From contig NC_092670.1 in NCBI RefSeq assembly GCF_964355755.1, positions 14,494,795 through 14,558,794 on the forward strand: a stretch of 64,000 bases of DNA, given 5' to 3'. Position 1 is the stretch's first letter; each line of letters opens with the position of its first letter. Shown one piece after another: positions 5,360-64,000 of this stretch. Source of the stretch: Antedon mediterranea. Lineage: Eukaryota > Animalia > Echinodermata. A program made the translations under genes and the position numbers. Under the pieces are notes generated by a model. It searched no databases. It was not told where the DNA came from and worked only from the letters and a program-made list of their open reading frames with translations.

Positions 5360-5804
5360 TTGGTTATCCGCACTTGGCGGATAACCCCTTGTTATTGTCA
5401 CGATCTTTTTTTTTTTTTTTGGTTATCCGCACTTTGGCGGATAACCTCTTGTTATTGTCAGGATCTTTTTTTTTTTTTTTGGTTATCCGCACTTGGCGGA
5501 TAACCCCTTGTTATTGTCACGATCTTTTTTTTTTTTTTTTTTGGTTATCCGCACTTGGCGGATAACCCCTTGTTATTGTCAGGATCTTTTTTTTTTGGTT
5601 ATCCGCACTTGGCGGATAACCCCTTGTTATTGTCAGGATCTTTTTTTTTGGTTATCCGCACTTGGCGGATAACCCCTTGTTATTGTCAGGATCTTTTTTT
5701 TTTTTTTTTGGTTATCCGCACTTGGCGGATAACCCCTTGTTATTGTCAGGATCTTTTTTTGGTTATCCGCACTTGGCGGATAACCCCTTGTTATTGTCAG
5801 GATC
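5360..5804 (+). repeat. Eight stacked Helentron left termini (~44-bp core plus variable T-tract)
   Basis: GGTTATCCGC-ACTTG-GCGGATAACC-CCTTGTTATTGTCAGGATC-(T)n at 5362, 5421, 5481, 5543, 5597, 5650, 5710, 5761. Confidence 0.92.
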
Positions 5805-6968
5805 TTTTTTTTTTTCTTTTTTTTCTTTTTTCTTCTTTCTTTCCCAGAATTTTGTTGCGCGTGTATCTCAAAATCTTCTTAACATAACATTGTATAACTT
5901 TATCAGAAGATTGACCTCTATCTGAAGATGTCGTAATAAGGTTTTCGGTCCAGTCTGAGTTGCGCAGCGTAAGTTACGCGCGATTTTATGAATTTCAATG
6001 ATTGATCGTAGATTAAAAACCAAAAGTAATTTTGTATTGAAACTTGGTGAAAATTTAAGTCATATTAAGCGCAAACTTTCTATGGATTAAAAATGGCATG
6101 TTGCACAGAAAGTTACGCGCGCACGCGCGTTTAAAATTTCAAAATGCGAAAAATCAACTTCTAATCAACTTTCTACGCGTTTCATGTCATTTTGAGCATT
6201 TCAAAAATTACCACACGTGCGCAATTTTTTTACGCGCACGTACGCACGTAGCGCAAAAACATCATTTTTTGGCTTGATTTTTGTTTTTCCTGTCTTTTTT
6301 TAGTAGATTTACCAACTTTCAAACAATTTCGACTTAAAATCACGTCATACGAGCACGTAGAATTGAAAAATTTGCGCGCGTTTTTGATGAAAAAGTTCAA
6401 AAATTCGTGAAAATTATGCCTTTTTTTAAAATGTCATAGATTCTAAACTACGTGGTGAACTTTTTTAAAATTACAGATTCTGGAAGTAGATGAGTTGTTG
6501 TTATCGAATCATGCATCAATATAGCTAACCGGACATTGTGACGTCATCGTATGGCCACTCAAATATAAAATATAGGATTTTTTTCACTTTCGTCTTAGCT
6601 CATCACATTTAATAGAGCGCATCTCCACTTATTCGTTTTCCATTGCCCTCCATTTCTTTATATTGTCTAGGTCAATCAATTATCTTTCGCATGATTCACC
6701 ATTTTAAAATTTTTCATGACGTCATCATGTGCAAAAGCGTCATTAACTTTGGTCACTTATTTTCACCTATTCTGAACTGTATGTAGTACGTATACAGAAT
6801 ATAGTGTTATACTGTATATATTTAGACGTGACACAAAATAGAGAGCGCACTAACATTTTTTCATTGGCATAATCGTTTTTCTGTGCGCAATATTCTAACG
6901 TATGATGTGCACGTGGCGTTTGCGAGGCGGATAACCTAACTCGTCCGTAGTGACGAGTTCAAATCTAG
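5759..6968 (+). mobile_element. Complete non-autonomous Helentron (HINE/DINE-1-like), ~1.2 kb
   Basis: 5' subTIR with inverted copy; 3' subTIR GCGGATAACC, stem-loop AACTCGTC-cgtagt-GACGAGTT, CTAG; flanked by T-runs. Confidence 0.85.
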
Positions 6969-9811
6969 TTTTTTTTTTTTTTTCTTTTTTTTCTTTTTTC
7001 TTCTTTCTTTCCCAGAATTTTGTTGCGCGTGTATCTCTAAATCTTCTTAACATAACATTGTATAACTTTATCAGAAGATTGACCTCTATCTGAAGATGTC
7101 GTAATAAGGTTTTCGGTCCCGTCCGAGTTGCGCAACATAAGTTACGCGTGATTTTATGAATTTCAATTATTGATCATAGATTAAAAACCAAAAGTCATTT
7201 TGTATTGAAACTTGGTGAAAATTTAAGTCATATTAAGAGCAAACTTTCTATGGATTAAAAATGGCAGGTTGCGCAGAAAGTTACGCGCGCACGCGCGTTT
7301 AAAATTTCAAAATGCGAAAAATCAACTTCTAATCAACTTTCTACGCGTTTCATGTCATTTTGAGCATTTCAAAAATTCCTACACGTGCGCAATTTTTTTA
7401 CGCGCGCGTGCACACGTAACGCAAAAACATCATTTTTTGGCTTGATTTTTGTTTTTCCTGTCTTTTTTTAGTAGATTTACCAACTTTCAAACAATTTCGA
7501 CTTAAAATCACGTCATACGAGCACGTAGAATTGAAAAATTTGCGCGCATTTTTGATGAAAAAGTTCAAAAATTCGTGAAAATTATGCCTTTTTTAAAAAA
7601 GTCATAGATTCTAAACTACGTGGTGAACTTTTTTAAAATTGCAGATTATGGAAGTATATGAGTTGTAGATATCAAATCATCCATGAATATGGCTAACCGG
7701 ACATTGTGACGTCATTGTATGGCCACTCGAATATAAAATATAGGATTTTTGTCTCTTTCGTCATAGCTCAACACATTACATAGAGCGCATCTCCACTTAT
7801 CCGTATTCCATTTTCTCCCATTTTTTTATATTGTCTAGGTCAATCAATTACCTTTCGCATGATTCACCTTTTTTAAAATTGTGATGACGTCATCATGTTC
7901 AAAAGCGTTAAAAACTTTGGTCACTTATTTTCACCTATTCTTCACTGTATATAGTACGTATACAGTATTGTGTATACTGTATATACTTAGGCGTGACGCA
8001 AAATAGAGAGCGCACTAACATTTTTTCAATGGCATAATCGTTTTTTCTGAGTGCAATATTCTAACGTATGACGTGCACGTGGCGTTTGCGCTGCGGAAAA
8101 CCTAAATCAAATTTGTTTATTATATTTATTTATTTATTTTTTTTTGATTACGAGTGAATTTTTAAAATGCGCCAAATTAATTTCTATTTAATTTGCGTAC
8201 ATTTCAGGTCATTTTGAGCATTTCAAAATTGTCTAAATTGTTTGTGTTTTGCGCACGCACTTGTGCACACAGCTTGTACAAAGCGTAGAAAAATGTGTTT
8301 TGCAATTGATTTTTGTTGGTCATAGGTCTACGTTCACGATTTCTTTCATTTTCATGACTTTTTATTGCAAATTAACGATGCACGTGCATGTTAAACTTTA
8401 GAAATCGTGTGCTAAATAAAGGGTAATATAATACGAATTTGTGCAAAAATTTACCTATTTTGATTCAATTCTAGCTCCTCAAGATGGCAGTTTACCCCGT
8501 TTTTAAAAATGTATTGTAGAAGCTAATGAGTTGTAGATATCAATTAATGTACAAATTTTACCTAAAGGATGTTCTGACGTCATCATATGGCCTCTCAAAT
8601 TTTAAAAATAGATTTTTTTTTCTATTTTGTATTAGTTAATCCCATTTAACTGTGCGCATCACGCTAATGCGTTTTAATGTTCTTGATCAATCAATTTTCC
8701 TTCACACATGAGTTAACAAAGTGACCCACGTGATTAAAACTTATGGAAATTGTTGAATTGTAGATATGAAGTCATATACAAATGTTGTCTATCTAATTTC
8801 ATGACGTCATTATATGGCCGGTTGAATTTAAAAAGTCAGATTTTCATCTCTTTCGTAAAAATTAATCGTGTTTAAAATAGAGCGCATCTCAGGTTAACGT
8901 TCCCAAAATTCTTTAAATTTGTATTAATGTAATTATTTGGATAATTAAATTATATAACATATAATGTATTCTGTAATATGCTGTCATAAAAATTTTCTTA
9001 TTGGATTGCTATGATGTCATGCTATGGCCAGTAATTGGAAAAGTAGGATTTTTATTTGTTTTTTGGCATAGTTCATCACTTCAACATAATACGCATCTCA
9101 GTTGTACGTGCCAAATTTTCAGAATTATTATTTATATTATATTATTTAATTATGCTCATTGAAATGAATTATTTTCCGAAAATGGACATACTTTTATGTT
9201 TCATTTTGATGACATCAAACAATGTTTTCTCCCGTAATTTCAGTTCTAAACACCATAATATACTACAGTACAACCAGTTACATGTGTGAATAATAATAAT
9301 AACAATTTCTTGTCTCCTCTGCTCTGTGATTTGATCTTATGGATTACTGACATTTATCTCAGTTGCCAGTGAAGCTTGCTCCAATAGATAAAATATTTCT
9401 GATAAAGCTAATATTATCACACCATAACTGTTAAAAATAATCTTTTATTTCAAACAAATAATAAGTATGAAATGTATGTATTTATAAAAGCTTTCATTGG
9501 TTATTGCAAATTGTACACAATTTTAAAAATTATAATAGGCTGTTTATACTATACAGTAGTTTATTTGGTGATCAGTAATTTTACTTCCTACATTATATAC
9601 ATGTTAATTTGGATTCATTAAACGCATATTATTAATCTATTTATAGAAGATTCTTAATTTTTAACAATCATTAATACAATTAATAATTTAATCATTTGCC
9701 GCGTTTAGACAATTGCTATGAAAGAGCTGCATTAATGAATAAATATCCGGATCCTATTATAATTGAAGAGATGAAACCATTCTATTGAACACCTAAAAGC
9801 CAAAAGAAAAT

Positions 9812-10575
9812 AAATTGATTATTCTTGCAAATGAGAAAATTACTGTGAACCTGGATAGATAGAACAAATAAAATAAAAAACAATTATACTGAATTATGTA
9901 TATACCTAATGAAGTATTGGTAATCGTATAAAAAAAAACGTATTTTCTTCTTCTGTAAAATGTAACTTTTTAGTTTTAACATTACTTGAATACCGATAGA
10001 TATTGAAAGATTATTATGTGCAGAGATTGCAACATTGCATATTCAAATTCAGAACAATATCTATAATAATATAACTCACATAAAAACAAGATTAAAATGT
10101 GTTTACTCACCAGATATTGTTTCTCCTATACAGGAGAATGACATGGGTTGAAGTTACAGATTATTCGCTGCCTCTCTTGCATAGATAATAAATTGATTAT
10201 TCTTCCACATGAGTAAATTACTGTATTAGTAATTTCATGTGGACCTGGATAGATAGAAAAAATAATATAAAAAACAATTATACAACTGAAATTATGTATA
10301 GACCTAATGAAGTATTGGTAATCGTATAAAACAAAACGTATTTTATTCTTCTGTGAAATGTAACTTTTTATTTTCAACATTACTTGAATACTGGTAGATA
10401 TTGAACGATTATTATGTACAGAGATTGCAACATTGCATATTCAAATTCAGAACAATATCTATAATAATATAACACATAAAAACAAGATTAAAATGTGTTT
10501 AGACACCAGATATTGTTTTTCCTATACAGGAGAATGACAATGGTTGAAGTTAAAGATTACTCGCTGCCTCTTGTG
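9812..10575. repeat. Two copies of a ~380-400 bp tandem repeat downstream of the A1 ORF
   Basis: ACCAGATATTG at 10109 and 10505; AATTGATTATTCTT at ~9812 and ~10191. Confidence 0.85.
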
Positions 10576-10707
10576 TATAGAGGGTCATAATGATTTTCAG
10601 CTTGTTTTTATCGAATTGTTTTTTTTAATTTGTATCCAGTTCTATTTTCAATTCCTAAAAAGTTTTTACAGAAATATAATTCAAATACTTAAAAACCATT
10701 GATGCAA

Positions 10708-13700
10708 TTAAAATTTAATTTGAATGGCTTCATGATAGCTATAATAAATTGGAATTACTTCAGTCTGTACTGAATCAAGACCTTTGCTATAAACATGATC
10801 AATCAATGTATTGTTTTCAGTTGTAGAACATGTAACATGTTGTTTGTACTCATTCTCTGCCATTAAATTGTTCACTCTGGAAGATTGTTTGAAAAGATTT
10901 TCATTAAAATCACCCATTACAATACATTTTGTGCTCATTTTATGTAACTCTTCCAAATGTTTTCTCAAATTTTGACAGAATTGATTAATATCATAACTTG
11001 GGGGTCGATAAATTACTGACACGGCTACAGAAATCGGACTTGTTATTAAAAATGAAACTGCTTCTATATCATTATTACCTATGTTTAATCTACTTGAAGA
11101 CGTGTTCTTGGCATACACTGCAACGCCACCATGAGCCTGATGTTTTATTTTGGAACTGAGATCATTTGTATTAGAATACGAATCATACCTTGCTTGGTGA
11201 TACAATTTATACGGCTCAATGCGTACGTCAAAAACATCATCATCCTTGTTTAACCATGTTTCAGTTAGACATATGATATTAGAATTCATAAACAAATCAT
11301 TACACTGAAGATCAACAAAATGTTGTTTAAGCCCTTGAATGTTATGTAACATTATTGAAAATCTAGAAGCCGAATCATGACCTTGTTTATCACATTGTAC
11401 GTATGAATCCATATTATTTAAGCACTTCTTTATGTTTGGATCACAATAAATCAGACTAGGTTTAAAATTTTCAATGGTAAGTCCAGTTATTGAAGTAACA
11501 CGACTGAGGCCTACATATGCTTGACCATGCGTAAAAGTATCTTTAAGGCAAACCACTGCTTTATCCATTGTCATTCCTTGCACTTTATGAACTGTGCATG
11601 CATATGCTAATTTGAGAGGAAATTGTTTTCGACTGTATTTTTTTCCCATAGATTCTTTAAACATTTCAATTGCCTGAATACCAATGTCATTATTGTCAAA
11701 TTTTACTTTAATAGATACTGGTCCGTTGTTATGATCAGGTTTGACTATTTCATCAACATGTCCCATACATCCATTCGTTAAGCCTTTTTTAACATCTACA
11801 TTTTTAATCAACATCACTCTGGCATTAATTGCAATCCACAAATAATTTAGTAAACTAGTTTGACGTGAATTCCGAGGTTTGTCACAATTTTTGCTCTGTT
11901 TCTTGCTATTTACTACACTATCTTCTGCTTTAATGCATACAATGTCTGTACAGGTTTTGTGCAACATTTTTTTATTCCATTCATCAACTTGTTTGTTGCG
12001 TGGGTAAATATGAACAGCATCTTCACATTCTTCACCTGTTTCACGTGATTTTAGAACTAATAAATCGTTATCAGACAAACAATCATGTTTTTCTTTTGTA
12101 CGCAATTTGTTTAACAATAAAGCAAATTGTTTATCCTCTTTTTGCCTCATGATTTGATCTAACTGTACTTGCTTAAAGTTATCTATCCACAGTGAGCTTT
12201 CCAATGTGTCTTTATATAACGAACTGCCCATCACCGGGGGTAACTGATAAAAATCACCAACAGCAATTACTGAAATGTTACCAAATGGACTATCGTTGCG
12301 TACTTGTTTTATTTGCCTTAATCGTCCGTGGATATACCAAAGTAACCTTTGATTTACCATTGATATTTCATCTATAATAACAATTTGCAACTGGCCCAAT
12401 TTATTACGAAGTGCACTTATTTTTTCTTCTCCAAGTGGTTGATACGGAAGTGAAATATTAATCGGTATAGACAAAGCGCTATGAATTGTTTGGCCTTTAA
12501 TATTATATGCTGCGATTCCTGTAGGAGCTAATTTCAATATTGACAAATCATCGGGATTTTCCATAATCTTTCCAAGAATACGTGTCGCTTCATTATAAAT
12601 ACAATTTACCAAATGACTTTTTCCTGTACCAGCACCTCCAGTTATGAAAGTGTAAAATGCTTCAGGTTTTTTACCATTAACTTTGTCTAAACACCATTGT
12701 CTTGTCTTATAAAATATATGTTGTTGTTTTTCATTTAAAGATCGAATCATTTTGTTCAATTCTGGTCTTGGAATATTAGATGAATTAGACTCTACTTTAA
12801 ATGTATGATTTTTTTGAATTCCAAAATCTGGAATGAAAAATTCATCTTCTTCATCATCAACCTCTACATTTGGCTTTGGGTTGTCTAACCTTTCTTTTTC
12901 GCTTTCTGGACATAATAAGCTCCATGCATCTTCTTGTGGTCCAAATTTTGATAAACATTCCTGTGCTTCTTCAACGTCATCAGCACTTTTTTCATATTGT
13001 TCCATGTTTCCATGAACTATTGACTTTACCGTTTGTAATTGACAGCCACATAATTTCACACATCCTTTCTCATGAAATTGTTCATACGTTTCAAAATTTG
13101 GAGGTTTTAACTGTTCATCTTTTCGAATTGGTAGAAATAACTGAAGTATACTCAAAAAATATTTCTCAGGTGCTGTATCCATTGGAAATCGAGGGTATCT
13201 TACTATAGCATTACTAGTCCGTGTTCTTTTTTGGATGAATCCCAACTGTTTTTTTAACTGAAATACATTCTTTTTTTTTTTGTTTCCTTTCATTTCTGAT
13301 GAACTCAATATTCTATATTCCGAACAAAATTTTGCAAGGCACATTTTATTAAATTCAGAACTATTAGGTCGAGCTTTATATTTGTCGATCTTATTTGGCA
13401 ACCATGCACTTACATCATCATCTTCTTTGTTTTTAATTACACTTAGTGGTAAACTCATTCTGACAGGATTAGGTCCTACTGGGATAAATTCAACTTTCCT
13501 TGAACATTCTTTTAATCTTAAACTACAAACACGATAAATACTTTCTTGTGCAGACACTTCTCGATTATTCATATAAACATTACCAAGTTTTCGAAAACTT
13601 TGCCTAGCATCTTCATTGCCTTCTTTTACTTCTGATGCTGCATGATTTAACAGTAAACCCATTTCACGTTCAGATTTTGACATATATCCTATAACGTAAA

Positions 13701-16700
13701 TTATACATGCATATACATTTGTAATATATTGAATATCCATATTAGCATTCCATGCTCTCAATAAGGAAGGATTATATTGATTTACCCACACATCTTGAGG
13801 GTTTCTCTTTATAACAATTTTTTCCTCAGTAGCTACACAATTATTTGCTTTCTCAAATGCAGTCTGTGTAATACCTAAACTTTGGAAAAGTTCTATTGCA
13901 TTTTTATATGTTTCTTCATTAGTCACAGCATCTTTTACTGAGGTTAACAGCTCCATTGCTTGTTTATTGTCATCATTATCATCATTGTCTTTATCCACAA
14001 TTGTAGGTCTCATAACAAATGTATTTCCAGAAGGTTGTCTGGGAAAGTTAAATCTGCAATTTGTTCCCTTTTTTTTACATGATTTAGAATGTCTTTTACT
14101 GTGAATTTGCACACTTTTAACAATTTCATTCAGTTCAGGATCTACAGTTTCACATGGCACAGCACAAGAAATATATTTATCGACAAAATTAATAACTTCA
14201 TTATCTTTATCTGTACCAAAAATAGGAGCATTTTCAACCCATACTAACATATGAACATGTGGACTTCCTCTCATTTGAAATTCAATTCGGTAAAAATAAT
14301 CTACGACTTTACCAATAGGCTGTGCTTCAGACAAAATTACATTTTTCAAAAAAGTATGAAAGCGTTTATCAAACATTCTGGCAACAGTCACTGGATTTGA
14401 TTTCAACAAATTACATTTATCTGCCCATTCTAATTCTTCAATGTTTCTTTGGTCTCCAGACTGACTTAGCAATGTCGTCATTATTTCTTTCCAACGGAAA
14501 TCAGCACTTGAGAATGAAAGAAAGAATGTTGGTTTTCCAATCTGTCTAACCATTGCTATTATATCTTTTTGTGTAGCTTGCCAGTACGGTGGAGTTCCAC
14601 GAATTTGTTTTAGAAATTTATAACCCCTATCAGATTTTAAAATCTCCTGAATTTTGGTAACATTTTTTAAATCGGATACAGTAACTTTGCTAAAATCATC
14701 TTTTTTACTTGACCCTTTTCGCAATGCAATGGAAATACTTGATAAAATTTGTTGAAGTTCATATAAAGATTGAGCATAAAATATGAATTCTGTATTTTGT
14801 GCAAACCTGTTATCTATATGCATTAATCTATTGTGAAAATAACGTCCAAGTGTTATTTTAACATCTCTCGTATCATGGAATGTTGGTTGTCCTGTTGGAA
14901 ATAACACTGGAAATGATTTTGCTTCATTGCTTTTATTACTTAATAATGCAATAGGGCTATTATTTTCACACGGTGCACAACAAATTATGTCATTAAAATA
15001 TTCATCAACCAGATTTTGTCGCCTGTCAACAGGTTGGAAACTTGTATCAAAGATAGCACCACACAATCGGTCTTCTACTTCTTCCTCTTCTTCTTCATTG
15101 TTTTCTACACATGTGTGATTTTCATGTACATTATTATTTGCATTTTCGATGTTTTCTTCAGATAAATAATTATGCCATTCTTCATTAATAGCTATATCAA
15201 AATAGCACTTGTTATGGTCTTGTAAATATCTAAGAGCTTGAATAACATTAGCAGTGTTAACAAATTTATATTTGTAATAACCTTTGTAAGACAACTTTCG
15301 CTTCAATTTTACGGATATTAATTGATCATCAACCTGTGGTCTAGGCAGCATTTTTACAGTTTCAATAGTATTTGATGGTACACATACGACTGGTCCATGT
15401 ATTCCATGCTGTCCACCTTTCGGTAAATTCATTAATTTCATAAAAGGAATGTTTAATCCAATCAAATGCTGCTCTAAATTATTTAAACACCCGAGCTCAG
15501 GAGGAATATCATATAGTTGTAAATTGTTTGAATTAGCTTCTGCAGGAACTTTCCCTTTTAGCATTTTCCTGTGGCATGTGAAACAAATCCATAAATGACA
15601 CCTTGGTGACTCGACAAATTGACAAGGTTTATTACATTCATTATTGCAAATATGCAAATACTTTTCATTTATACAAGCCTGATTTTTGTATTTAGGTTTG
15701 ATGCACTTCATAACTTGATCTTTGAATAACAATTTAAAGCATACGCAACAAACATTTTCAGGACCACGAGAAACTGTTTTCTTGAAGTTTTCTAAAACAA
15801 TATTAAAATTAGTGTTTTCTGTTTTGATTTTTTTCCGATTTTTCATATTTTTCTTCATGATTTTTTTCCGGAACACTTCATCACCATGATACTTTTCTGT
15901 AAATCTTTTCTTACATCTTTGACGAAATTTTGAATTCTCTCGATATTTCTCTGCCAATTTCTGCTTACAGTTTTGTCTAAATTCCAAATTACTCCGATAC
16001 TTTTCTGCCAATTTGTCTTTGCATTTTTGTCTAAATTTCAAATTACTCCGATACTTTTCTGCCAATTTGTCTTTGCATTTTCTTCTAAATTTTAAATTAC
16101 TCCGATACTTTTCTACCAGTTTGTCTTTAAAGTTTTGTCTAAATTTCAAATTACTCTGATACTTTTCAGCCAATTTTTCTTTACAGTTTTGTCTAAATTT
16201 CAAATTACTCCGATACTTTTCTGCCAGTTTGTCTTTCCATTTTTGTCTAAATTTCAAATTAGTCCGATACTTTTTAACAAATTTTTCTTTACAGTTTTGC
16301 CTAAATTTAAAATTACTTTGATACTTCTCTGTCAATTTTTGGGTAATGTTTTCTCTGAATTGTGAATTAGTACAATACTTCTGTGCTAAATTTTGCTTCA
16401 AATTTTTTCGAAATTGTGTATCATTGTGATACCTTTCCTGATTTCTTTGTTTATTATTTTGTATAGTTTTATGTCTAAACATTGTATCATTGTTGTATCT
16501 ATTCTTCACTGTTTCTTTTTTGGTTGTTCGGTAATCCAAATCAATATTGTAGTTATGTTTAGCTTTATTTCGTACCTTAACATTATATTCAGGTTCACAT
16601 CTATACATTTTGTGTTGTCTTTTTCTGTTTTCCTTCCTTTTTTGGAATTTATAATCATCATCAGCATATCTTATTTGTTGTGCCTCCTTTACTTTACGTT

Positions 16701-20028: not shown

Positions 20029-20231
20029 TATGTATGGTTAATCAAATCCAGAAATTGTTTTCAAATTCTATACAATTGATGTATTCTACTTCGTAATTAC
20101 TTTATACAAATATGTTTTTTTTCCTGCTAAACTTATATTTATCTTTCCAAATTGTGTTTCGAGACAACTAATGTTTATATTCACTACGCCTAACTTTTTT
20201 GGTTCTGCAAAAGCCTTGATAAAGTTTCTAT

Positions 20232-20277
20232 AGATAATAGAAAGATAGATAGATTTAGATAGATAGATAGATAATAG
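20232..20277 (+). repeat. Imperfect (GATA)n microsatellite, also at ~44504-44549
   Basis: agatagatagatttagatagatagatagata. Confidence 0.8.
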
Positions 20278-20410
20278 ACTGCTGTCTATAAAAAGATTTG
20301 AGATTTCGTTTTATTCATCCAGTGGAGATTTTGCTTAAAATAATTCATCCAGTGGAGATTTTGCTTTAAATTTGCTTTCGTTGTTGCTGATTTGGAATAC
20401 TTATAATCGG

Positions 20411-51940: not shown

Positions 51941-52047
51941 TTGGTTATCCGCACTTGGCGGATAACCCCTTGTTATTGTCAGGATCTTTTTTTTTTTTTT
52001 TTTGGTTATCCGCACTTGGCGGATAACCCCTTGTTATTGTCAGGATC
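51941..52047 (+). repeat. Two stacked left termini
   Basis: Cores at 51943 and 52004. Confidence 0.9.
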
Positions 52048-54878: not shown

Positions 54879-56010
54879 AATTGATTATTCTTGCAAATGA
54901 ATAAATTGCTGTATAAGTAATTTCATGTGGACCTGCATAGATAGAAAAAAAAACTGAAAGTATGTATAGACCTAATGAAGTATTGGTAATCGTATAAAAC
55001 AAAACGTATTTTCTTCTTCTGTAAAATGTAACTTTTTATTTTTAACATTACTTGAATATTGGTAGATATTGAAAGATTATTATGTGCACAGATTGCAACA
55101 TTGCATATTCAAATTCAGAACAATATTTATAATAATATGACTCATATAAAAACAAGATTAAAATGTGTTTACTCACCAGATATTGTTTCTCCTATACAGG
55201 AGAATAACATGGTTGAAGTTACACATTATTCGCTGCCCCTCGTGCATAGATAATAAATTGATTATTCTTGCAAATGAATAAATTACTGTATTAGTAATTT
55301 CATGTGGACCTGGATAGATAGAAAAAAATTATTAAAAACAATTATACAACTGAAAAAGTATGTATAGACCTAATAAAGTATTGGTAATCGTATAAAACAA
55401 AACGTATTTTCTTCTTCTGTAAAATGTAACTTTTTATTTTTAACATTACTTGAATACCGGTAGATATTGAAAGATTGCATTTTCAAATTCAGAACAATAT
55501 TATATAACTCACATAAAAACAAGATTAAAATGTGTTGACTCACCAGATATTGTTTTCCCTATACAGGAGAATGACATGAGTTGAACTTACATATTATTCG
55601 CTGCCCCTCTTGCATAGATAATAATTGATTATTCTTCCAAATGAGTAAATTACTGTATTAGTAATTTCATGTGGACCTGGATAGATAAAAAAATAATATA
55701 AAAAAACAATTATACAAATGAAATTATGGATAGACCTAATGGAGTATTGGTGATCGTATAAAATAAAACGTATTTTCTTCTGTGAAATTTAACTTTTTAT
55801 TTTTAACATTATTTGAATACCGGTAAATATTGAACAATTGTTATGTGCACAGATTGCAACATTGCATATTCAAATTCAGAACAATATTTATAATAATAAC
55901 TCACATAAAAACAATATTAAAATGTGTTTAGTCACCAGATATTGATTTTCCTATACAGGAGAATGACATGGGTTGAAGTTACAGATTACTCGCTGCCCCT
56001 TGTGCATAGA
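54879..56010. repeat. Three copies of the ~370-400 bp repeat downstream of the A3 ORF
   Basis: CACCAGATATTG at ~55174, 55541, 55933. Confidence 0.8.
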
Positions 56011-56149
56011 GAGTCATAATTATTTTCAGCTTGTTTTTATCAAATTGGGTTTTTTTTCATGATTTCCAGTTCTATTTTCAATTCTTAAAAAGTTTTTTTT
56101 ATAGTATTCTATTCTGAATTCTATTCACAGAAATATAATTCCAAAACCA

Positions 56150-59100
56150 TTAAAATTTAATGTGAATGGCTTCATGATAGCTATAATAAATTGGAATTAC
56201 TTCAGCCTGTACTGAATCAAGACCTTTGCTATAGACATGATCAATCAATGTATTGTTTTCAGTGGTGGAACATGTAACATGTTGTCGGTACTCATTCTCT
56301 GACATTAAATTTTTCACTCTGGAAGATTGTTTGAAAAGATTTTCATTAAAATCACCCATTAAAATACATTTTGTACTCATTTTATGTAACTCTTCCAAAT
56401 ATTTTCTCAAATTTTGACAGAATTGATTAATATCATAGCTTGGGGGTCGATAAATTACTGACACGGAAACTGAAATTGGACTTGTTATTAAAAATGAAAC
56501 TGCTTCTATATCATAATTAGGTATGTTTAATCTGCTTGAAAACGTGTTTTTGGTATACACTGCAACGCCGCCATGAGCCTGATTTTTCAATTTGGAACTC
56601 AGATCATTTCTATTAGAATACGAATCATACCTTGCTTGGTGATACAATTTATACGGCTGAATATTTACTTCAAAAACATCTTCATCTTTATTCAACCACG
56701 TTTCAGTCAGACATATGATACTAGAATTCATAAACAAATCATTGCACTGAAGATCAGCAAAATGTTGCTTAAGTCCTTGAATATTATGTAACATTATTGA
56801 AAATTTAGAATCCGAATCATGACCTTGATTTTCACATTGTACATATGAATCCATATTATTTAAGCATTTCTTTATGTTTGGATCACAATAAATCAAATTA
56901 GGATTAAGATGTTCAATAGTAAGTCCAGATATTGAAGTAACACGACTGAGGGCTACGTATGCTTGTCCAGGTGCAAATGTATTTTTAAGGCAAACTACTG
57001 CTTCATTCATTGTCAATCCTTGGACTTTATGAACTGTGCATGCATATGCTAATTTGAGAGGAAATTGTTTTCGACTATATTTATTCCCCATAGATTCTTT
57101 AAACATTTCAATTGCCTGAACACCGATTTCATTATTATCAAACTTTACTTTAATAGATACCGGTTTGGCGTTATTATTGGGTTTGACTATTTCATAAACA
57201 TGTCCCATACATCCATTCGTCAAGCCTTTTTTAACATCTACATTTTTAATCAACATCACTCTGGCATTAAGTGCAATCCACAAATAATTTAGTAAACTAG
57301 TTTGACGTGAATTCCGAGGTTTGTCACAAATTTTGGTCTGTTTCTTGGCGTTTACTACACTATCTTCTGCTTCAATGCATACAATGTCTGTACAGATTTT
57401 GTGCAACATTTTTTTATTCCATTCATCAACTTGTTTATTGCGTGGGTAAATATGAACAGCATCTTCACATTCTTCCCCTGTTTCACGTGATTTTAAAACA
57501 AATAAATCGTTATCAGACAAACAATCATGTTTTTCTTTTGTACGCAATTTGTTTAACAATAAAGCAAATTCTTTATCTTCTTTTTGTCTCATGATTTGGT
57601 CTAACTGTACTTGCTTAAAGTTATCTAACCACAGTGAGCTTTCCAATGTGTCTTTATATAACGAACTGCCCATCACTGGGGGTAACTGATAAAAATCACC
57701 AACAGCAATTACTGAAATGTTACCAAATGGACTATCGTTGCGTACTTGTTTTATTTGCCTTAATCGTCCGTGGATATACCAAAGTAACCTTTGATTTACC
57801 ATTGATATTTCATCTATAATAACAATTTGCAACTGACGCAACTGATTACGAAGTGCACTTATTTTTTCTTCTCCAAGTGGTTGATACGGAAGTGAAATAT
57901 TAATCGGGATAGACAAAGCGCTATGAATTGTTTGGCCTTTAATATTATATGCTGCGATTCCTGTAGGAGCTAATTTCAATATTGACAAATCATCGGGATT
58001 TTCCATAATTTTTCCAAGAATACGTGTCGCTTCATTATAAATACAGTTTACCAAATGACTTTTTCCTGTACCAGCGCCACCAGTTATGAAAGTGTAAAAT
58101 GCTTCAGGTTTTTTACCATTAGCTTTGTCTAAACACCATTGTCTTGTCTTATAAAATATATGTTGTTGTTTTTCATTTAAAGATCGAATCATTTTGTTCA
58201 ATTCTGGTCTTGGAATATTAGATGAATTAGACTCTACTTTAGATGTATGATTTTTTTGAATTCCAAAATCTGGAATGAAAAATTCATCTTCTTCATCATC
58301 AACCTCTACATTAGGCTTTGGGTTGTCTAACCTTTCTTTTTCACTTTCTGGACATAATAGGCTCCATGCATCTTCTTGTGGTCCAAATTTTGATAAACAT
58401 TCCTGTGCTTCTTCAACATCATCAGCACTTTTTTCATATTGTTCCATGTTTCCATAAACTATTGACTTTACCGTTTGTAATTGACAGTCACATAATTTCA
58501 CACATCCTTCCTCATGAAATTGTTCGTACGTTTCAAAATTTGGAGGTTTTAACTGTTCATCTTTTCGAAATGGTAGAAATAACTGAAGTATACTCAAAAA
58601 ATATTTCTCAGGTGCTGTATCCATTGGAAATCGAGGGTATCTTACTATAGCATTACTAGTTCGTGTTCTTTTTTGGATGAATCCCAACTGTTTTTTTAAC
58701 TGAAATACATTCTTTTTTTGTTTGTTTCCTTTCATTTCTGATGAACTCAATATTCTATATTCCGAACAAAATTTTGCAAGGCACATTTTATTAAATTCAG
58801 AACTATTAGGTCGAGCTATATATTTGTCGATCTTATTTGGCAACCATGCACTTACATCATCATCTTCTTTGTTTTTAATTACACTTAGTGGTAAACTCAT
58901 TCTGACAGGATTAGGTCCTACTGGGATAAATTCAACTTTCCTTGAACATTCTTTTAATCTTAAACTACAAACACGATAAATACTTTCTTGTGCAGACACT
59001 TCTCGATTATTCATATAAACATTACCAAGTTTTCGCAAACTTTGCCTAGCATCTTCATTGCCTTCTTTTACTTCTGATGCTGCATGATTTAACAGTAAAC

Positions 59101-62100
59101 CCATTTCACGTTCAGATTTTGACATATATCCTATAACGTAAATAATACATGCATATACATTTGTAATATACTGAATATCCATATTAGCATTCCATGCTCT
59201 CAATAAGGAAGGATTATATTGATTTACCCACACATCTTGAGGGTTTCTCTTTATAACAATCTTTTCCTCAGTAGCTACACAATTATTTGCTTTCTCAAAT
59301 GCACTCTGTGTAATACCTAAACTTTGGAAAAGTTCTATTGCATTTTTATATGTTTCTTCATTAGTCACAGCATCTTTTACTGAGGTTAACAGCTCCATTG
59401 CTTTTTTATTGTCATCATTATCATCATTGTCTTTATCCACAATTGTAGGTCTCATAACAAATGTATTTCCAGAAGGTTGTCTGGGAAAGTTAAATCTGCA
59501 ATTTGTTCCCTTTTTTTTACATGATTTAGAATGTCTTTTACTGTGAATTTGCACACTTTTAACAATTTCATTCAGTTCAGGATCTACAGTTTCACATGGC
59601 ACAGCACAAGAAATATATTTATCAACAAAATTAATAACTTCAATATCTTTATCTGTACCAAAAATAGGAGCATTTTCAACCCATACTAACATATGAACAT
59701 GTGGACTTCCTCTCATTTGAAATTCAATTCGGTAAAAATAATCTACGACTTTACCAATAGGCTGTGCTTCAGACAAAATTACATTTTTCAAAAAAGTATG
59801 AAAGCGTTTATCAAACATTCTGGCAACAGTCACTGGATTTGATTTCAACAAATTACATTTATCTGCCCATTCTAATTCTTCAATGTTTCTTTGGTCTCCA
59901 GACTGACTTAGCAATGTCGTCATTATTTCTTTCCAACGGAAATCAGCACTTGAGAATGAAAGAAAGAATGTTGGTTTTCCAATCTGTCTAACCATTGCTA
60001 TTATATCTTTTTGTGTAGCTTGCCAGTACGGTGGAGTTCCACGAATTTGTTTTAGAAATTTATAACCCCTATCAGATTTTAAAATCTCCTGAATTTTGGT
60101 AACATTTTTTAAATCGGATACAGTAACTTTGCTAAAATCATCCTTTTTACTTGACCCTTTTCGCAATGCAATGGAAATACTTGATAAAATTTGTTGAAGT
60201 TCATATAAAGATTGAGCATAAAATATGAATTCTGTATTTTGTGCAAACCTGTTATCTATATGCATTAATCTATTGTGAAAATAACGTCCAAGTGTTATTT
60301 TAACATCTCTCGTATCATGGAATGTTGGTTGTCCTGTTGGAAATAACACTGGAAATGATTTTGCTTCATTGCTTTTATTACTTAACAATGCAATAGGACT
60401 ATTATTTTCACATGGTGCACAACAAATTATGTCATTAAAATATTCATCAACCAAATTCTGTCGCCTGTCAACAGGTTGAAGACTTGTATCAAAGGTAACA
60501 CCACATAATCGATCTTCTACTTCTTCTTCTCTTTCTTCTTCTTCATTGTTTTCATCTTCATTAGTAGTTTCACTTTCGATGTAATCTTCAGATAAATAAT
60601 TGTGCCATTCTTCATTAATAGCTATATCAAAATAGCACTTGTTATGATCTTGTAAATATTTAAGAGCTTGAATAACATTGGCAGTGTTAACAAATTTATA
60701 TTTGTAATAACCTTTGTAAGACAACTTTCGCTTCAATTTTACGGATATTAATTGATCATCAACCTGTGGTCTAGGCAGCATTTTAACAGTTTCAATAGTA
60801 TTTGAAGGTACACATACAACAGGTCCATGTATTCCATGCTGTCCACCTTTAGGTAAATTCATTAATTTCATAAAAGGAATGTTTAATCCAATCAAATGCT
60901 GCTCTAAATTATTTAAACACCTGAGCTCAGGAGGAATATCGTGTAGTTGTAAATTGTTTGAATTGGCTTCTGCAGGAACTTTCCCGTTTAACATTTTCCT
61001 GTGGCATGTGAAACAAATCCATAAACAACACCTTGGTGATTCGACAAATTGACAATGTTTATTACTTTCATTATTGCAAATATGCAAATACTTTTCATTT
61101 ATACAAGCCTGATTTTTGTATTTAGCTTTGATACACTTCATAACTTGATCTTTGAATAACAATTTAAAGCAAACACAACAAACATATTCAGGACCACGAG
61201 AAACTGTTTTCTTGAAGTTTTCTAAAACAATATTAAAATTAGTGTTTTCTGTTTTGATTTTTTCCCGATTTTTCATATTTTTCTTCATGATTGTTTTCCG
61301 GAACCCTTCATCACCATGATACTTTTCTGTAAATCTTTGCTTACACTTTTGCTTACACCTTTGACGGAATTTTAAATTACCTCGATATTTCTCAGCCAAT
61401 TTTTGTTTACAGTTTTGTCTAAATTTCAAATTACTCCTATACTTTTCTGCCAATTTGTCTTTGCATTTTTGTCTAAATTTCAAATTATTCCTATACTTTT
61501 CTGCCAATTCGTCTTTGCATTTTTGTCTAAATTTCAAATTACTCCGATACTTCTCTGCCAATTTCTGCTTACAGTTTTGCCGAAATTTCAAATTATTCCG
61601 ATACTTCTCTGCCAATTTATGCTTAAGGTTTTGTCGAAATTTAAAATTACTCCGATACTTTTCTGCCATTTTTTGGGTAAGGTTTTCTCTGAATTGTGAG
61701 TTATTACAATACTTCTCTGATAATATTTGCTTCAAATTTTGTCGAAATTGTGGATCATTGTGATACCTCTCCTTATTTCTTTGTTTATTATTTTGTATAG
61801 TTTTATGCCTAAACATTGTATCATTGTTGTATCGATTCTTTTTGGTTTCTTTTTTGGTTTTTCGGTAACCCAAATCAATGTTGTAGTTATGTTTAGCTTT
61901 ATTTCGTAACTTAACATTATATTCAGGTTCACATTTATACATTTTGTGTTGTCTTTCTCGGTTTTCTTTCCTCTTTTGGAATTTATAATCATCATCACCA
62001 TATCTTATTTTTTGTGCCTCTTTTACTTTGCGTTTTTTTTCCTCTCTGTATACAGAATCACTTTGATATTTGTTTCCGATTTCATTTGTTTCTTTTGAAT

Positions 62101-64000
62101 TATTGTTTTCTTCTCTTTCCCGTTTAATTCTTTGTCGATTCTTTTCTCTTTCTTTTTTAATTCTATAAGATTGTTTTCGTTTTCTGCTCAATATTTTTAC
62201 TCTGCTTTCTGAACAAGGTTTTTCAACAGTTTTACTCTGTTTGTGTTTTGGTTCTATATCTTCAAATGTGTCACAAGGTTCTTTTTCCGTTTGCTTTCGT
62301 TTCTTTGTTGTAGAATCCTTTACCAAAAACTTCGCCTCTGTATTTGACAGTTTATTGTGGGATGTCACATTCATATCAACTTGTCCTGTTGTTTCCTGAA
62401 CATTATTTTGACTCACATTGACAGATTCTACTACATTAAAATGCACATTCATGGTGTACAAAATATATATACCATTGTCAGTTGTAACATCATCTATTCT
62501 TCCTGGCTTTTTAGCAGAAAACAATTGCCACGTCAAAAGCTGATCATTAAATGAATAAATATCTGTATTAAGCAAGTTTGCCATTGCACTTATTTCAGTA
62601 TTGGATGCCCACCTTCCATTATCCATTACTCTTTTTTTAAACACATATTCCTTAACTGATCTATATTCGTGACTAAATGTATTAATAAATAAGTCATCAG
62701 TTTCCAATAAATGATTAGTAATTGCTCTTCTTAAAAGTAAATGATTATCTTCAGTCCCAGAAATAATGTATGAAATTGCACGATAAAAACAATTACCATC
62801 ACCTGTAATATTCGTAATTTGAAGAGGATGTCCAATCTGACTAGTTCTGTTAATACCACAATTCATATCGGTATGTTCACAATGAATGCCTACTTCTTTA
62901 CACATGTTTTTCTTTTGTGCTTCTGAGATTGGAATAAATTTAAAATTCTTGTCAGGTCTTTCTCCATACTGAACATTAACAATTTCAATATCACTATCAC
63001 TTTGCCATTCATTACTTGATGAGACATGACCTTCTTTATTATGTGTTTTGCCTTTAACTTTATAATCAATATTCTTGTCTGGTAATCTTGAACTACATTT
63101 ATACTGATAAGACGTACTAGGTTCATCAACATCGACGTTTCCCAAGTTGCTTTGTTCACAATTATCATCGAGCACAGAAGCGGAACATAAAATCATAGAC
63201 TTATTTTCAATATTTACACCAGTCAGTTCAAACTCGGTGTCATGTAAATTACAGTTCATTGACCTTGCTAATCTTATACAATAGTCGTACACACCTTGCC
63301 AAGATGGACTGTAAAGTAAAATACTCTTTCCATGCTCACTAACACAACCAAATCGATCTCTTGCATGTGGATCAAATATAAGGAAACCATTTACACGTTT
63401 AATAATAGAAAATGTGCTTCTGTTAAAATTCATAAAAAATGCATCATGTTGGTGTAATTCTTGTTCAAGAGCTTGGTTTAATGACAAGGCTCCATATTCA
63501 GCCATAAATTCGAGATTCCCATCTATTATGCCAAAAACTGATTCTTTTGGAGATATTACAAATGTGTTATCCAAGATATCCAATTCTTTCGGCAGTTCAG
63601 AAATCATCAAAAGGTCCTCATGCATAGTGGAATCTTTTTGAATGTAACGGTACAACTCATTTCCAAGAGTCAATATTGTATCAAGGTCTTTGGTGTAAAA
63701 TTCATTTCCATTCATCTTTGTAGAATAAAGAATAGCTACAAGACTATTTGCAACACACTGTTTACCACCTGCAAAGCCAAATCTATAATTCCCTTGATTA
63801 AAACTACCCTGTGCTACAGTTATATTATTATCATTACTATTATATAGTTGTAATTCATTTATTGATTGTGTATTCTGCCTTATTGGTGCATTCTTTTGTT
63901 TTGATCTCTCATCGATTATCAATTCTTCCGAAAAATTATTTTTGGTTAAAACTTCAATATCCACATCGATAGCATGTTGGTCACATTTAGGTTTAGTATG
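56150..64000 (-). CDS. Helentron RepHel-EN transposase, partial (N-terminus beyond the window)
   Basis: The frame stays open to the edge; the listed start at 63964 is an internal Val (GTG). DUB, OTU, Rep, helicase and APE motifs are intact. Confidence 0.94.
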   Translation of the reverse strand, partial: HTKPKCDQHAIDVDIEVLTKNNFSEELIIDERSKQKNAPIRQNTQSINELQLYNSNDNNITVAQGSFNQGNYRFGFAGGKQCVANSLVAILYSTKMNGNEFYTKDLDTILTLGNELYRYIQKDSTMHEDLLMISELPKELDILDNTFVISPKESVFGIIDGNLEFMAEYGALSLNQALEQELHQHDAFFMNFNRSTFSIIKRVNGFLIFDPHARDRFGCVSEHGKSILLYSPSWQGVYDYCIRLARSMNCNLHDTEFELTGVNIENKSMILCSASVLDDNCEQSNLGNVDVDEPSTSYQYKCSSRLPDKNIDYKVKGKTHNKEGHVSSSNEWQSDSDIEIVNVQYGERPDKNFKFIPISEAQKKNMCKEVGIHCEHTDMNCGINRTSQIGHPLQITNITGDGNCFYRAISYIISGTEDNHLLLRRAITNHLLETDDLFINTFSHEYRSVKEYVFKKRVMDNGRWASNTEISAMANLLNTDIYSFNDQLLTWQLFSAKKPGRIDDVTTDNGIYILYTMNVHFNVVESVNVSQNNVQETTGQVDMNVTSHNKLSNTEAKFLVKDSTTKKRKQTEKEPCDTFEDIEPKHKQSKTVEKPCSESRVKILSRKRKQSYRIKKEREKNRQRIKREREENNNSKETNEIGNKYQSDSVYREEKKRKVKEAQKIRYGDDDYKFQKRKENRERQHKMYKCEPEYNVKLRNKAKHNYNIDLGYRKTKKETKKNRYNNDTMFRHKTIQNNKQRNKERYHNDPQFRQNLKQILSEKYCNNSQFRENLTQKMAEKYRSNFKFRQNLKHKLAEKYRNNLKFRQNCKQKLAEKYRSNLKFRQKCKDELAEKYRNNLKFRQKCKDKLAEKYRSNLKFRQNCKQKLAEKYRGNLKFRQRCKQKCKQRFTEKYHGDEGFRKTIMKKNMKNREKIKTENTNFNIVLENFKKTVSRGPEYVCCVCFKLLFKDQVMKCIKAKYKNQACINEKYLHICNNESNKHCQFVESPRCCLWICFTCHRKMLNGKVPAEANSNNLQLHDIPPELRCLNNLEQHLIGLNIPFMKLMNLPKGGQHGIHGPVVCVPSNTIETVKMLPRPQVDDQLISVKLKRKLSYKGYYKYKFVNTANVIQALKYLQDHNKCYFDIAINEEWHNYLSEDYIESETTNEDENNEEEEREEEVEDRLCGVTFDTSLQPVDRRQNLVDEYFNDIICCAPCENNSPIALLSNKSNEAKSFPVLFPTGQPTFHDTRDVKITLGRYFHNRLMHIDNRFAQNTEFIFYAQSLYELQQILSSISIALRKGSSKKDDFSKVTVSDLKNVTKIQEILKSDRGYKFLKQIRGTPPYWQATQKDIIAMVRQIGKPTFFLSFSSADFRWKEIMTTLLSQSGDQRNIEELEWADKCNLLKSNPVTVARMFDKRFHTFLKNVILSEAQPIGKVVDYFYRIEFQMRGSPHVHMLVWVENAPIFGTDKDIEVINFVDKYISCAVPCETVDPELNEIVKSVQIHSKRHSKSCKKKGTNCRFNFPRQPSGNTFVMRPTIVDKDNDDNDDNKKAMELLTSVKDAVTNEETYKNAIELFQSLGITQSAFEKANNCVATEEKIVIKRNPQDVWVNQYNPSLLRAWNANMDIQYITNVYACIIYVIGYMSKSEREMGLLLNHAASEVKEGNEDARQSLRKLGNVYMNNREVSAQESIYRVCSLRLKECSRKVEFIPVGPNPVRMSLPLSVIKNKEDDDVSAWLPNKIDKYIARPNSSEFNKMCLAKFCSEYRILSSSEMKGNKQKKNVFQLKKQLGFIQKRTRTSNAIVRYPRFPMDTAPEKYFLSILQLFLPFRKDEQLKPPNFETYEQFHEEGCVKLCDCQLQTVKSIVYGNMEQYEKSADDVEEAQECLSKFGPQEDAWSLLCPESEKERLDNPKPNVEVDDEEDEFFIPDFGIQKNHTSKVESNSSNIPRPELNKMIRSLNEKQQHIFYKTRQWCLDKANGKKPEAFYTFITGGAGTGKSHLVNCIYNEATRILGKIMENPDDLSILKLAPTGIAAYNIKGQTIHSALSIPINISLPYQPLGEEKISALRNQLRQLQIVIIDEISMVNQRLLWYIHGRLRQIKQVRNDSPFGNISVIAVGDFYQLPPVMGSSLYKDTLESSLWLDNFKQVQLDQIMRQKEDKEFALLLNKLRTKEKHDCLSDNDLFVLKSRETGEECEDAVHIYPRNKQVDEWNKKMLHKICTDIVCIEAEDSVVNAKKQTKICDKPRNSRQTSLLNYLWIALNARVMLIKNVDVKKGLTNGCMGHVYEIVKPNNNAKPVSIKVKFDNNEIGVQAIEMFKESMGNKYSRKQFPLKLAYACTVHKVQGLTMNEAVVCLKNTFAPGQAYVALSRVTSISGLTIEHLNPNLIYCDPNIKKCLNNMDSYVQCENQGHDSDSKFSIMLHNIQGLKQHFADLQCNDLFMNSSIICLTETWLNKDEDVFEVNIQPYKLYHQARYDSYSNRNDLSSKLKNQAHGGVAVYTKNTFSSRLNIPNYDIEAVSFLITSPISVSVSVIYRPPSYDINQFCQNLRKYLEELHKMSTKCILMGDFNENLFKQSSRVKNLMSENEYRQHVTCSTTENNTLIDHVYSKGLDSVQAEVIPIYYSYHEAIHIKF
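61310..61770 (-). repeat. 54-bp (18-aa) coding repeat, ~7 units
   Basis: Translation and DNA. Confidence 0.88.

Follow-up and report, generated by a model that had tools for sequence, protein, structure and literature searches.

A putatively self-nested pile of HLE2/Helentron elements next to an mRNA capping enzyme gene in Antedon mediterranea

Introduction

How can a single genomic region come to hold long series of left and right ends of one transposon family, some of them apparently separated from their partners by tens of kilobases? This question is raised by a pile of at least 58 kb on contig NC_092670.1 of Antedon mediterranea. It occupies positions 5360 to 64000 of the window, by which we mean the whole 64-kb stretch that was analysed, and its right edge lies beyond. 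Clusters that grow by successive insertion into earlier copies are built by retroelements that target themselves, for instance Dictyostelium DIRS-1 and Chlorella Zepp. Their enzymes and mechanism are unrelated to those of the Antedon pile, and the likeness is one of analogy only. Here we ask whether the pile is a satellite, a set of composite copies or a nest of separate insertions, and what determines the insertion site.

Inventory of the pile

A first-pass annotation had listed the ends of the pile, and all of them could be confirmed. The 15 left ends start at 5362, 5421, 5481, 5543, 5597, 5650, 5710, 5761, 24251, 25463, 25540, 25610, 49562, 51943 and 52004, and the 12 intact right ends lie at 6968, 24248, 25460, 26826, 27983, 29141, 30292, 31466, 48406, 49559, 50784 and 51929. 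Left ends carry a 10-bp hairpin (-11.3 kcal/mol) and right ends a stem-loop before a terminal CTAG. Since the same 42 nt recur unchanged in 11 of the 12 right ends, and with 2 differences in the remaining one, these matches are not due to chance. All ends have the same orientation, and no family end was found on the minus strand of the window. When left ends are counted as opening and right ends as closing brackets, the recount reproduces the depth profile given before (start 8, peak 9, minimum 1, end 3). The sequence also resumes after right ends as had been stated: in 8 of 12 cases with a T/pyrimidine tract and a headless body, in the other 4 with a new left end, which is separated from the right end by exactly two T in three junctions and by 13 T in one.

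Three decayed internal right ends (8093, 32576, 53170) and three transposase ORFs of about 9 kb were absent from that annotation. Autonomous elements, not 1.15-kb units, make up about 46 of the 58.6 kb of the pile.

The neighbouring host gene codes for an RNGTT-like mRNA capping enzyme. In the profile search, 4 of 7 tested frames matched, with DSPc at 3846-4091 (E 2e-8) and mRNA_cap_enzyme at 1648-1836 (E 7e-12), 1929-2045 (E 2e-8) and 292-414 (E 0.009). The outer insertion point of the pile, a short TT, lies 266 bp upstream of the likely start codon, which was placed at 5096 by eye from the translation. The features are as follows.

292..5096, minus: host gene, mRNA capping enzyme (RNGTT-like), intron-containing, extends past the window start
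5360..5361, plus: outer insertion point (TT) of the whole pile, from the sequence and contig breakpoints at 5361
5362..5760, plus: seven stacked left-end stubs, each a 44-45 nt head with 10-bp hairpin followed by a T-tract
5761..6968, plus: intact HINE (non-autonomous), innermost of the first stack, from ends and body alignment
6969..24248, plus: autonomous copy A1, headless, its head likely the stub at 5710, from ends, ORF and tract pairing
8093..8134, plus: dead internal right end of A1, which retains the sub-terminal repeat but neither hairpin nor CTAG, by sequence comparison
10708..20037, minus: A1 transposase, intact frame of 3,109 codons, from ORF and profile search
24251..25460, plus: intact HINE with a variant head (also at 5421), two T after the preceding right end
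25463..25609, plus: two left-end stubs, tracts of the same interrupted type by tract reading
25610..26826, plus: intact HINE inside the tract of the 25540-27983 element (split tract)
26827..31466, plus: headless bodies of four HINEs, with right ends at 27983, 29141, 30292 and 31466, from ends and body alignment
31467..48406, plus: autonomous copy A2, headless, from ends and ORF
34932..44309, minus: A2 transposase, intact frame of 3,125 codons, from ORF and profile search
48407..49559, plus: headless HINE body, mosaic by alignment
49562..50784, plus: intact HINE whose tract (49606-49651) serves as reference for the tract split at 25609/26827
50785..51929, plus: headless HINE body that differs from the one at 26827 in 9 of 1,135 columns
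51943..52003, plus: left-end stub, partner beyond the window, by tract reading
52004..64000, plus: autonomous copy A3 with its own head, runs off the window, from ends and ORF
56150..64000, minus: A3 transposase, open frame with 2,616 codons in the window and the 5′ part outside, from ORF and profile search

Family assignment and autonomous copies

By its transposase domains and end structure the family is assigned to HLE2/Helentron. The A1 frame contains Herpes_teg_N, OTU, DUF6570, Rep (HUH), PIF1 helicase and AP endonuclease domains. Helitron_like_N (E about 3e-36) and PIF1 (E about 1e-28) were matched in all three frames, and Exo_endo_phos, OTU, DUF6570 and Herpes_teg_N scored above the cut-off in each of them. 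A 10-bp sequence at the left end has its complement 42 nt from the right end. This is a sub-terminal inverted repeat as in HLE2, slightly shorter than the 12-15 bp given for Helentrons (PMC4067079). A stem-loop near the right end is likewise typical of HLE2/Helentrons. HLE2/Helentron insertion is expected to fall between T and T, with variable T and no target duplication. In the pile, all 15 left ends follow TT, and 11 of 12 right ends precede TT, the remaining one a single T, while the one tract that can be rebuilt exactly (see below) has two T in excess. The 1.2-kb units contain no ORF of at least 150 aa and share both ends with the three autonomous copies, as is characteristic of the non-coding HINEs.

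In ends, enzyme domains and, apparently, TT target the Antedon family resembles the Helentrons and HINE/DINE-1 elements of Thomas, Vadnagara and Pritham (2014, PMC4067079), for which sub-terminal inverted repeats, a 5′ inverted repeat, a 3′ stem-loop, a TT target with variable flanking T and a Rep-helicase-endonuclease with OTU are described. The accessible text there deals with dispersed copies, and not with insertion into the own tract, deep nests or autonomous copies headed by a whole HINE, as proposed for the Antedon pile. The transposase frames are on the minus strand, and they read away from stem-loop ends on their upstream side. A minus-orientation frame is described for Helentron-Da-40 (PMC4067079), and a stem-loop end upstream of the frame for HLE2-reverse and HelenXT233 (Li 2024, HELIANO, PMC11417382). 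The Antedon copies share the latter position and also the markers of HLE2 subgroup b (DUF6570, Herpes_teg_N, endonuclease), a likeness by domain content. An autonomous HLE2 with two left termini is known from the same source, while its accessible text reports no nested pile for HLE2-reverse or HelenXT233. Metagenomes contain unlabelled relatives at 27 loci (25-52% identity), and no comparable ends were detected among the five largest repeat families listed per locus at the 7 loci that were repeat-scanned.

All three autonomous copies carry a dead internal right end, as opposed to the 11 of 12 invariant live right ends. In A1, scattered body remnants continue downstream of it to about 8890. In A2, the dead end (32576-32600) is followed by a fossil headless body (32599-32937) with 67% identity to the HINE, and in A3 the decayed end (53170-53211, 7 of 42 positions changed) by one with 78% (53207-53396). 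Similarly, internal 3′ ends of maize Helitrons are decayed, 99 of 100 having no intact CTAG (PMC3288121). We consider it likely from these remnants that each autonomous copy, with its HINE head and dead right end, is an older nest that became frozen.

Divergence of the units

Three large blocks are 92-94% alike at a spacing of about 24 kb, and tandem Helitron arrays with many 5′ ends have been described (Xiong 2016, as cited in PMC12628747). Both would fit an ordinary satellite, produced by tandem duplication, unequal crossing-over or rolling-circle concatemers of 60-bp, 1.15-kb and 24-kb units. However, neighbours are no more alike than non-neighbours (body identity 90.55% for adjacent and 90.55% for non-adjacent pairs, p 0.47), the most similar body pairs are 22-24 kb apart, and the ends are pristine while the bodies differ by 7-14%. 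Nor is there neutral decay in the units of the pile. The transposase ORF pairs have dN/dS values of 0.35, 0.31 and 0.29 at a dS of 0.09-0.13, and every gap in their alignment comprises whole codons, with identity varying patchily from 85 to 100%. Neither a stop nor a frameshift occurs in 26,550 coding nt, where about 45 stops would be expected at 3% neutral divergence; if neutral, post-insertion divergence is below about 0.1-0.2%. The ORFs have diverged under selection (dN/dS about 0.3), and the copies were therefore not duplicated in place. The ORF, neighbour-identity and end data thus largely refute a satellite as the main cause, and we regard it as very improbable. The apparent 60-bp and 1.15-kb satellites are, as had been suggested, better read as the two halves of interrupted elements, which is backed by the split tracts and by the body comparisons.

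The bodies are mosaics. That at 48407..49559, for example, is nearest to the 24251 element over its front 373 columns (5 differences), its rear being nearest to the autonomous right arm. As a tree of 15 bodies also leaves 7 of 12 inner branches open, the order of arrival is not readable from it.

Split T-tracts and pairing of the halves

The preferred reading, which we hold to be probable, is that about 15 same-strand copies of one HLE2 family arrived separately from elsewhere, each inserting into the T-tract of an earlier copy about 45 bases inside its left end. The ends, split tracts, mixed subfamilies and intact frames are the observed parts of this explanation. In one case the interrupted tract can be rebuilt exactly: the stub at 25584-25609 and the remainder at 26827-26848 together equal the intact tract at 49606-49651 plus two T. 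The seven stubs at 5362..5760 have 15, 15, 18, 10, 9, 16 and 7 T, in this order. Last-in-first-out pairing gives stub and remainder counts of (7,15), (16,5), (9,10), (10,11), (18,1) and (15,2), which complement each other at distances of up to 45 kb (r -0.957 with an exact p of 6/720, for six pairs chosen after viewing the counts). Inclusion of all eight closed pairs results in r -0.49 (p 0.11), and the first-in-first-out control in r -0.05 (p 0.47). Tract type agrees with the intact copy in 4 of 8 pairs (permutation p 0.36), which is uninformative as a statistic because several types lack an intact reference.

The bracket model of the first-pass annotation stands in that depth never becomes negative and most pairs fit. 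Strict pairing fails for two of the eight closed pairs, by tract type and by left-end variant, and the net three more right ends that it places beyond the window are therefore not a firm prediction. The stub at 25463 misfits the body at 27984, and by its variant the head at 5421 would belong to the body at 48407, which is displaced by one step from the strict order. If the 25463 stub is left out and the pairing shifted accordingly, the variant head is accommodated, but the T-count complementarity disappears (r -0.37, p 0.24). Neither parse accounts for everything.

These two misfits would be expected if heads and tails were mostly uncoupled, multi-headed copies and multi-tailed read-through copies having been made elsewhere and inserted as blocks, slippage having multiplied the 60-bp heads and the balance of ends being partly luck. 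This would also explain the adjacent same-type stubs at 25463 and 25540, the similar succession of parts at 22357-27983 and 46535-51929, in which one body pair reaches 99.2%, and the long head stack, which is rare in simple nesting; copying from the first head to the first right end is published as a model for FoHeli (PMC5148889; see also PMC3288121). We nevertheless judge it unlikely. It predicts neither the T-count complementarity across 45 kb nor the exact tract rebuild, and it still requires self-insertion as the source of the composites.

Target preference

That the family's own 5′ tract, about 45 bp inside the left end, takes insertions agrees with the original proposal; the tract may be preferred because it is the family's own or only because it is a long T run. 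All 14 inner insertions are in tracts that hold 495 of the 15,641 TT/AA sites of the pile. It has close to an even chance of being right that nesting is real and self-recognition plays no part, the enzyme preferring long T runs and the locus being accessible (housekeeping promoter) or reached by local hops. A poly-T preference is published for Helentrons (PMC4067079), and the tracts represent 20 of the 30 runs of at least 9 T/A in the pile. If every T run of the pile is equally likely to be chosen, the 8-long head stack has a p of 0.002-0.15, depending on the run-length threshold, and at 11 T it is no longer rare (p 0.15). On the other hand, the 10 long runs elsewhere in the pile were not hit, no copy is reversed and the outermost insertion is into no more than a short TT. 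Three junctions with exactly two T between right and left end are also poorly explained (model p 0.007-0.04), and in a branching model, for which rates were assumed, a cluster of 15 requires that each tract be hit at a rate well above 0.2.

Age and allelic state

Short-read contigs stop matching at 5361 in three of four runs, all from one sample. A contig from run X1 follows the flank up to this position and continues with 2,889 other letters, without a left end. Because of this contig and the unbroken ORFs, we consider it likely that the pile is young and putatively polymorphic, being absent from another allele. A single row of run X3 contains a head-to-head joint of 8 T, a tract length that does not occur in the window; its depth is 432, versus about 45 for flank contigs, and it is suggestive of self-targeting. 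The left end is covered by contigs at thousands of times the depth of the flank, which is not a copy number. The region is repeat-dense, and its support comes from short-read contigs. That it results from collapsed or scrambled repeats in the assembly is nonetheless hardly credible, with all units distinct, the frames unbroken and a contig from run X4 leading from the flank into the first left end.

Discussion

Self-insertion as such is not new, contrary to the initial view that a self-targeting nest was possibly undescribed: with stacked 5′ termini, it has already been proposed for Fusarium HLE2 (PMC5148889, PMC13342296) and maize Helitrons (PMC3288121). In FoHeli (Chellapan 2016, PMC5148889), stacked short 5′ termini were attributed to it, one copy lies 2 bp upstream of the 5′ end of another, and reverse-frame members exist; up to five 5′ termini are described for Fusarium HLE2 (PMC13342296). 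There, nesting was inferred from several heads on one tail, whereas in Antedon the matching headless bodies are in place and split tracts allow pairing. The Antedon pile is also 8-9 deep, with three autonomous copies participating. For maize Helitrons with multiple termini, nested Helitrons were proposed as intermediates (Dong 2011, PMC3288121). Those are HLE1 elements with AT targets, and the accessible text describes no fixed internal landing tract, in contrast to the tract of the Antedon HLE2 family. A balanced deep Helentron nest in animals was not found in the openly accessible literature, and supplements of PMC5148889 and PMC13342296 may hold deeper nests; the accessible texts of PMC7492417, PMC13085455 and PMC12001565 contain none. 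The habit is thus known from fungi and maize, and the Antedon case is unusually deep and well preserved.

In the nesting that we propose, Rep-helicase would begin at the left end and halt at whichever intact right-end hairpin it meets first, and the resulting copy would then be joined into a T run. Insertion in the tract would separate the old head, which stays upstream, from the old body, now downstream, and supply a fresh tract, so that the target renews itself. Some copies were probably already two-headed or two-tailed on arrival, having been copied from nests elsewhere, or were edited by slippage, which would explain the two misfit pairs. Since so long a head stack is rare under the uniform model, it is plausible that composite copies or slippage supplied additional heads. 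A HINE inserted into the tract of an autonomous element would have become the new head of that element once the right end of the HINE had died.

More tentatively, and with considerable doubt, we suggest that the Helentron homes to its own left end, transposase at the resident hairpin capturing the adjoining T run. Piles of tens of kilobases might then build up in the standing variation of one species with no transposase gene broken, and incoming HINEs with dying right ends might renew the autonomous lineage as new heads, a state that would be frozen in all three copies and have been reached at least twice independently.

How multi-terminus Helitron arrays come about has until now mostly been deduced from the end products, and the pile documents this process in an unusually legible form. 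Annotation tools would call the pile two satellites. Its split T-tracts provide a countable test between nesting on the one hand and rolling-circle concatemers and slippage on the other. The dead internal right ends favour a polarity of starting at the left and stopping at the first right end for reverse-frame HLE2. With at least 58 kb, probably allele-specific and 266 bp from the likely start codon of an essential gene, it represents a large structural variant. Its three unbroken, recombining transposase copies mark a family of animal-type Helentrons that is, by sequence, active, and which is suited to the target-choice assay that the field is missing.

Termini and content of the pile

A pattern search of the window returned 15 left ends and 12 intact right ends, exactly those listed in the first-pass annotation, which had read left ends as opening and right ends as closing brackets. 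Its depth trace was also recovered exactly, starting at 8, peaking at 9, ending at 3 and, with a minimum of 1, never becoming negative. The minus strand, searched throughout the window, carries none of the family's ends. The left end has a perfect 10-bp hairpin, and a T/pyrimidine tract begins 44-45 nt from its start; the right end has a 10-bp repeat complementary to that of the left end, a stem-loop and a terminal CTAG, and 11 of the 12 copies are without any difference across 42 nt. At three of the four junctions between a right end and a left end (24248-24251, 25460-25463, 49559-49562) exactly two T intervene, for which a model gives a chance probability of 0.007-0.04. They could have arisen when a copy inserted beside a resident end or when a circle junction was integrated.

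The largest parts of the pile, three transposase frames, had been left out of that annotation. In this anatomy, where tracts are split, subfamilies are mixed and the frames are intact, three autonomous copies stand together with ten bodies of non-autonomous Helentrons (HINEs) of about 1.15 kb apiece. The pile lies upstream of a host gene, 266 bp from its likely start codon.

292-5096, minus strand: RNGTT, mRNA capping enzyme gene with introns; triphosphatase and guanylyltransferase exons (DSPc/mRNA_cap_enzyme matches)
6969-24248: autonomous copy A1
31467-48406: autonomous copy A2
52004 to past 64000: autonomous copy A3

The minus-strand frames have 3,109, 3,125 and at least 2,616 codons, and each contains Herpes_teg_N, OTU, DUF6570, Rep, PIF1 and AP-endonuclease domains, all over the Pfam cut-off. 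By its domains and ends, the family has the tested features of HLE2/Helentron elements in reverse-frame arrangement, as described in PMC4067079 and PMC11417382, and its TT context is compatible with this placement. The three copies (6969-64000) are recombinant mosaics in which the closest pair changes along the frame; for example, A1 and A2 are 99% identical near the helicase end and A1 and A3 99% near Rep.

The transposase contains a coding minisatellite of 54 bp (18 residues; 15888-16338, 40142-40622, 61347-61749) that varies in length by whole units; its period is shared by relatives from two metagenome loci (L001, 2425-2676; L004, 2-498), whose proteins are 45-49% identical. Directly past the stop codon, each autonomous element has two or three copies of a ~370-bp tandem repeat (9805-10581, 34032-34804, 54875-56026). 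Segments 21778-22356 and 46070-46644 match each other in reverse orientation (78%), which points to an imperfect palindrome, ~580 bp long, on the upstream side of the frame, and A1 has a perfect 110-bp duplication (22250-22470). By eye, the transposase start (about 19500-20028, minus strand) shows a hydrophobic stretch and a Cys/His-rich PHD-like motif, a region for which Pfam gave no match.

For RNGTT, four of the seven frames tested matched DSPc or mRNA_cap_enzyme. One of its introns contains a short element with terminal inverted repeats (2838-2974), which is a high-copy MITE, as its contig depth is very high and its loose ends number in the hundreds. A second short inverted-repeat element was seen by eye in an intron (about 985-1200), and ~90 bp are duplicated nearly identically within the gene (about 3765-3857 and 4228-4320).

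Probable separate arrival of the copies

Tandem duplication is very unlikely as the main origin of the pile, since neighbours are no more alike than other copies and the frames have diverged under selection. Identity among the 13 HINE-type bodies ranges from 86 to 99%; its mean is 90.55% for the ten adjacent pairs and 90.55% for the remaining pairs (permutation p 0.47), and the closest pairs stand 22-24 kb from each other. Between the frames, pairwise dS is 0.09-0.13 and dN/dS 0.29-0.35, all gaps are whole codons, and no stop occurs in 26,550 nt of frame where ~45 would be expected at 3% neutral divergence. From these sequence comparisons, we infer that the copies diverged as active lineages and came in separately. 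Assuming neutrality after arrival, the absence of breaks limits their subsequent divergence to about 0.1-0.2%.

Probable nested insertion

Insertion into a resident tract should leave a stub (the left end cut off) and a headless remainder beyond the insert. The stub 25584-25609 and the remainder 26827-26848, separated by a whole HINE, together equal the intact tract 49606-49651 plus two T. Were the cuts in a T run made at variable positions, a long stub should go with a short remainder when pairs are formed last-in-first-out, the pairing order of the first-pass annotation. The six closed pairs that belong to the first stack, a subset picked after the counts were seen, have (stub, remainder) T counts of (7,15), (16,5), (9,10), (10,11), (18,1) and (15,2), with r -0.957 (exact p 6/720), while the reversed-order control gives r -0.05 (p 0.47). 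In the two omitted pairs the cut falls within a run further along the tract; with them included, the eight closed pairs give r -0.49 (p 0.11).

Several observations speak against a purely nested pile. The tract type agrees with that of an intact copy in 4 of 8 pairs (p 0.36); of the others, two have no intact reference and two are misfits. In tract type, stub 25463 agrees with the adjacent stub 25540 and not with body 27984. The only other occurrence of the variant head of 5421 is at 24251; over 373 columns, the body front of that element has 5 differences from body 48407, its nearest match, and 13 from the runner-up, and pairing 5421 with 48407 is one step away from strict order. Leaving out stub 25463 mends this pairing but abolishes the T-count signal (p 0.24). 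In a toy model that picks T runs uniformly, a head stack of eight arises in 0.2-15% of simulations, depending on the threshold. Given the misfits and the rarity of such a stack, it is likely that some copies brought extra heads or tails or that slippage edited the stacks, so the prediction of three additional right ends is a loose one. We conclude that the pile is real, Helentron and mostly nested as proposed.

Autonomous copies as probable frozen nests

A1, A2 and A3 each open with a full HINE body (89-94%), followed by a dead right end and what is left of another headless body. The dead ends of A1 and A2 are of one version, which has lost the hairpin, and differ from each other at 4 of 30 nt; that of A3 is separate, with 7 of 42 positions changed. 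A HINE may have inserted into the tract of an autonomous element and become its head once the HINE right end died. This layout agrees with copying that starts at a left end and stops once it meets an intact right end, a polarity we favour; decay of an unused right end under relaxed selection would also give dead internal ends. The right arm of the autonomous element (23182-24248, 47339-48406) is in turn a copy of the HINE body, at 81%, which gives each end of the element a long direct repeat. Body 48407 is a recombinant with a HINE front and an autonomous rear.

A possible second allele and other loci

The flank was found in assembled contigs from four sequencing runs (X1-X4) of one sample. 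A 3,960-letter contig of X1 matches 4291-5361 and then runs on through 2,889 letters of sequence other than the left end; contigs of X2 and X3 likewise cease matching at 5361, with 28 letters remaining, and that of X4 enters the left end as far as 5384. An allele without the pile is the simplest reading, a different insertion at 5361 the alternative. One of the matches listed is a head-to-head joint whose T count, 8, does not occur in the window; its depth of 432, compared with ~45 for contigs of the flank, suggests further head stacks elsewhere in the genome.

Target choice and proposed mechanism

All 14 inner insertions lie in tracts, which make up 495 of 15,641 TT/AA sites, and none of the 10 runs of at least 9 T/A outside tracts in the pile was hit. 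The enzyme may recognise its own hairpin, or merely take long T runs at an accessible site; Helentrons are described as favouring TT and poly-T targets with variable T number (in PMC4067079). When rates are assumed and each tract is hit at a rate of 0.2, a branching model puts the probability of a 15-member cluster at 3e-7; targeting would then need some bias, local or sequence-based.

The first-pass annotation knew of no description of such nesting for Helentrons. Models with circles and self-insertion appear in PMC5148889, whose sections 10 and 16 propose self-insertion as the source of stacked 5' termini in Fusarium HLE2, with five termini at most according to a passage in PMC13342296. Nesting has likewise been proposed for maize Helitrons, as intermediates (in PMC3288121), and a review mentions plant arrays rich in 5' ends and oyster Helitron parts inserted in each other (in PMC12628747). 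In the open-access main texts searched, no report of a balanced deep nest with pairable split tracts was found. Insertions would follow one another into a target that each new copy renews; the pile would be young and allele-specific, and autonomous copies would gain new heads.
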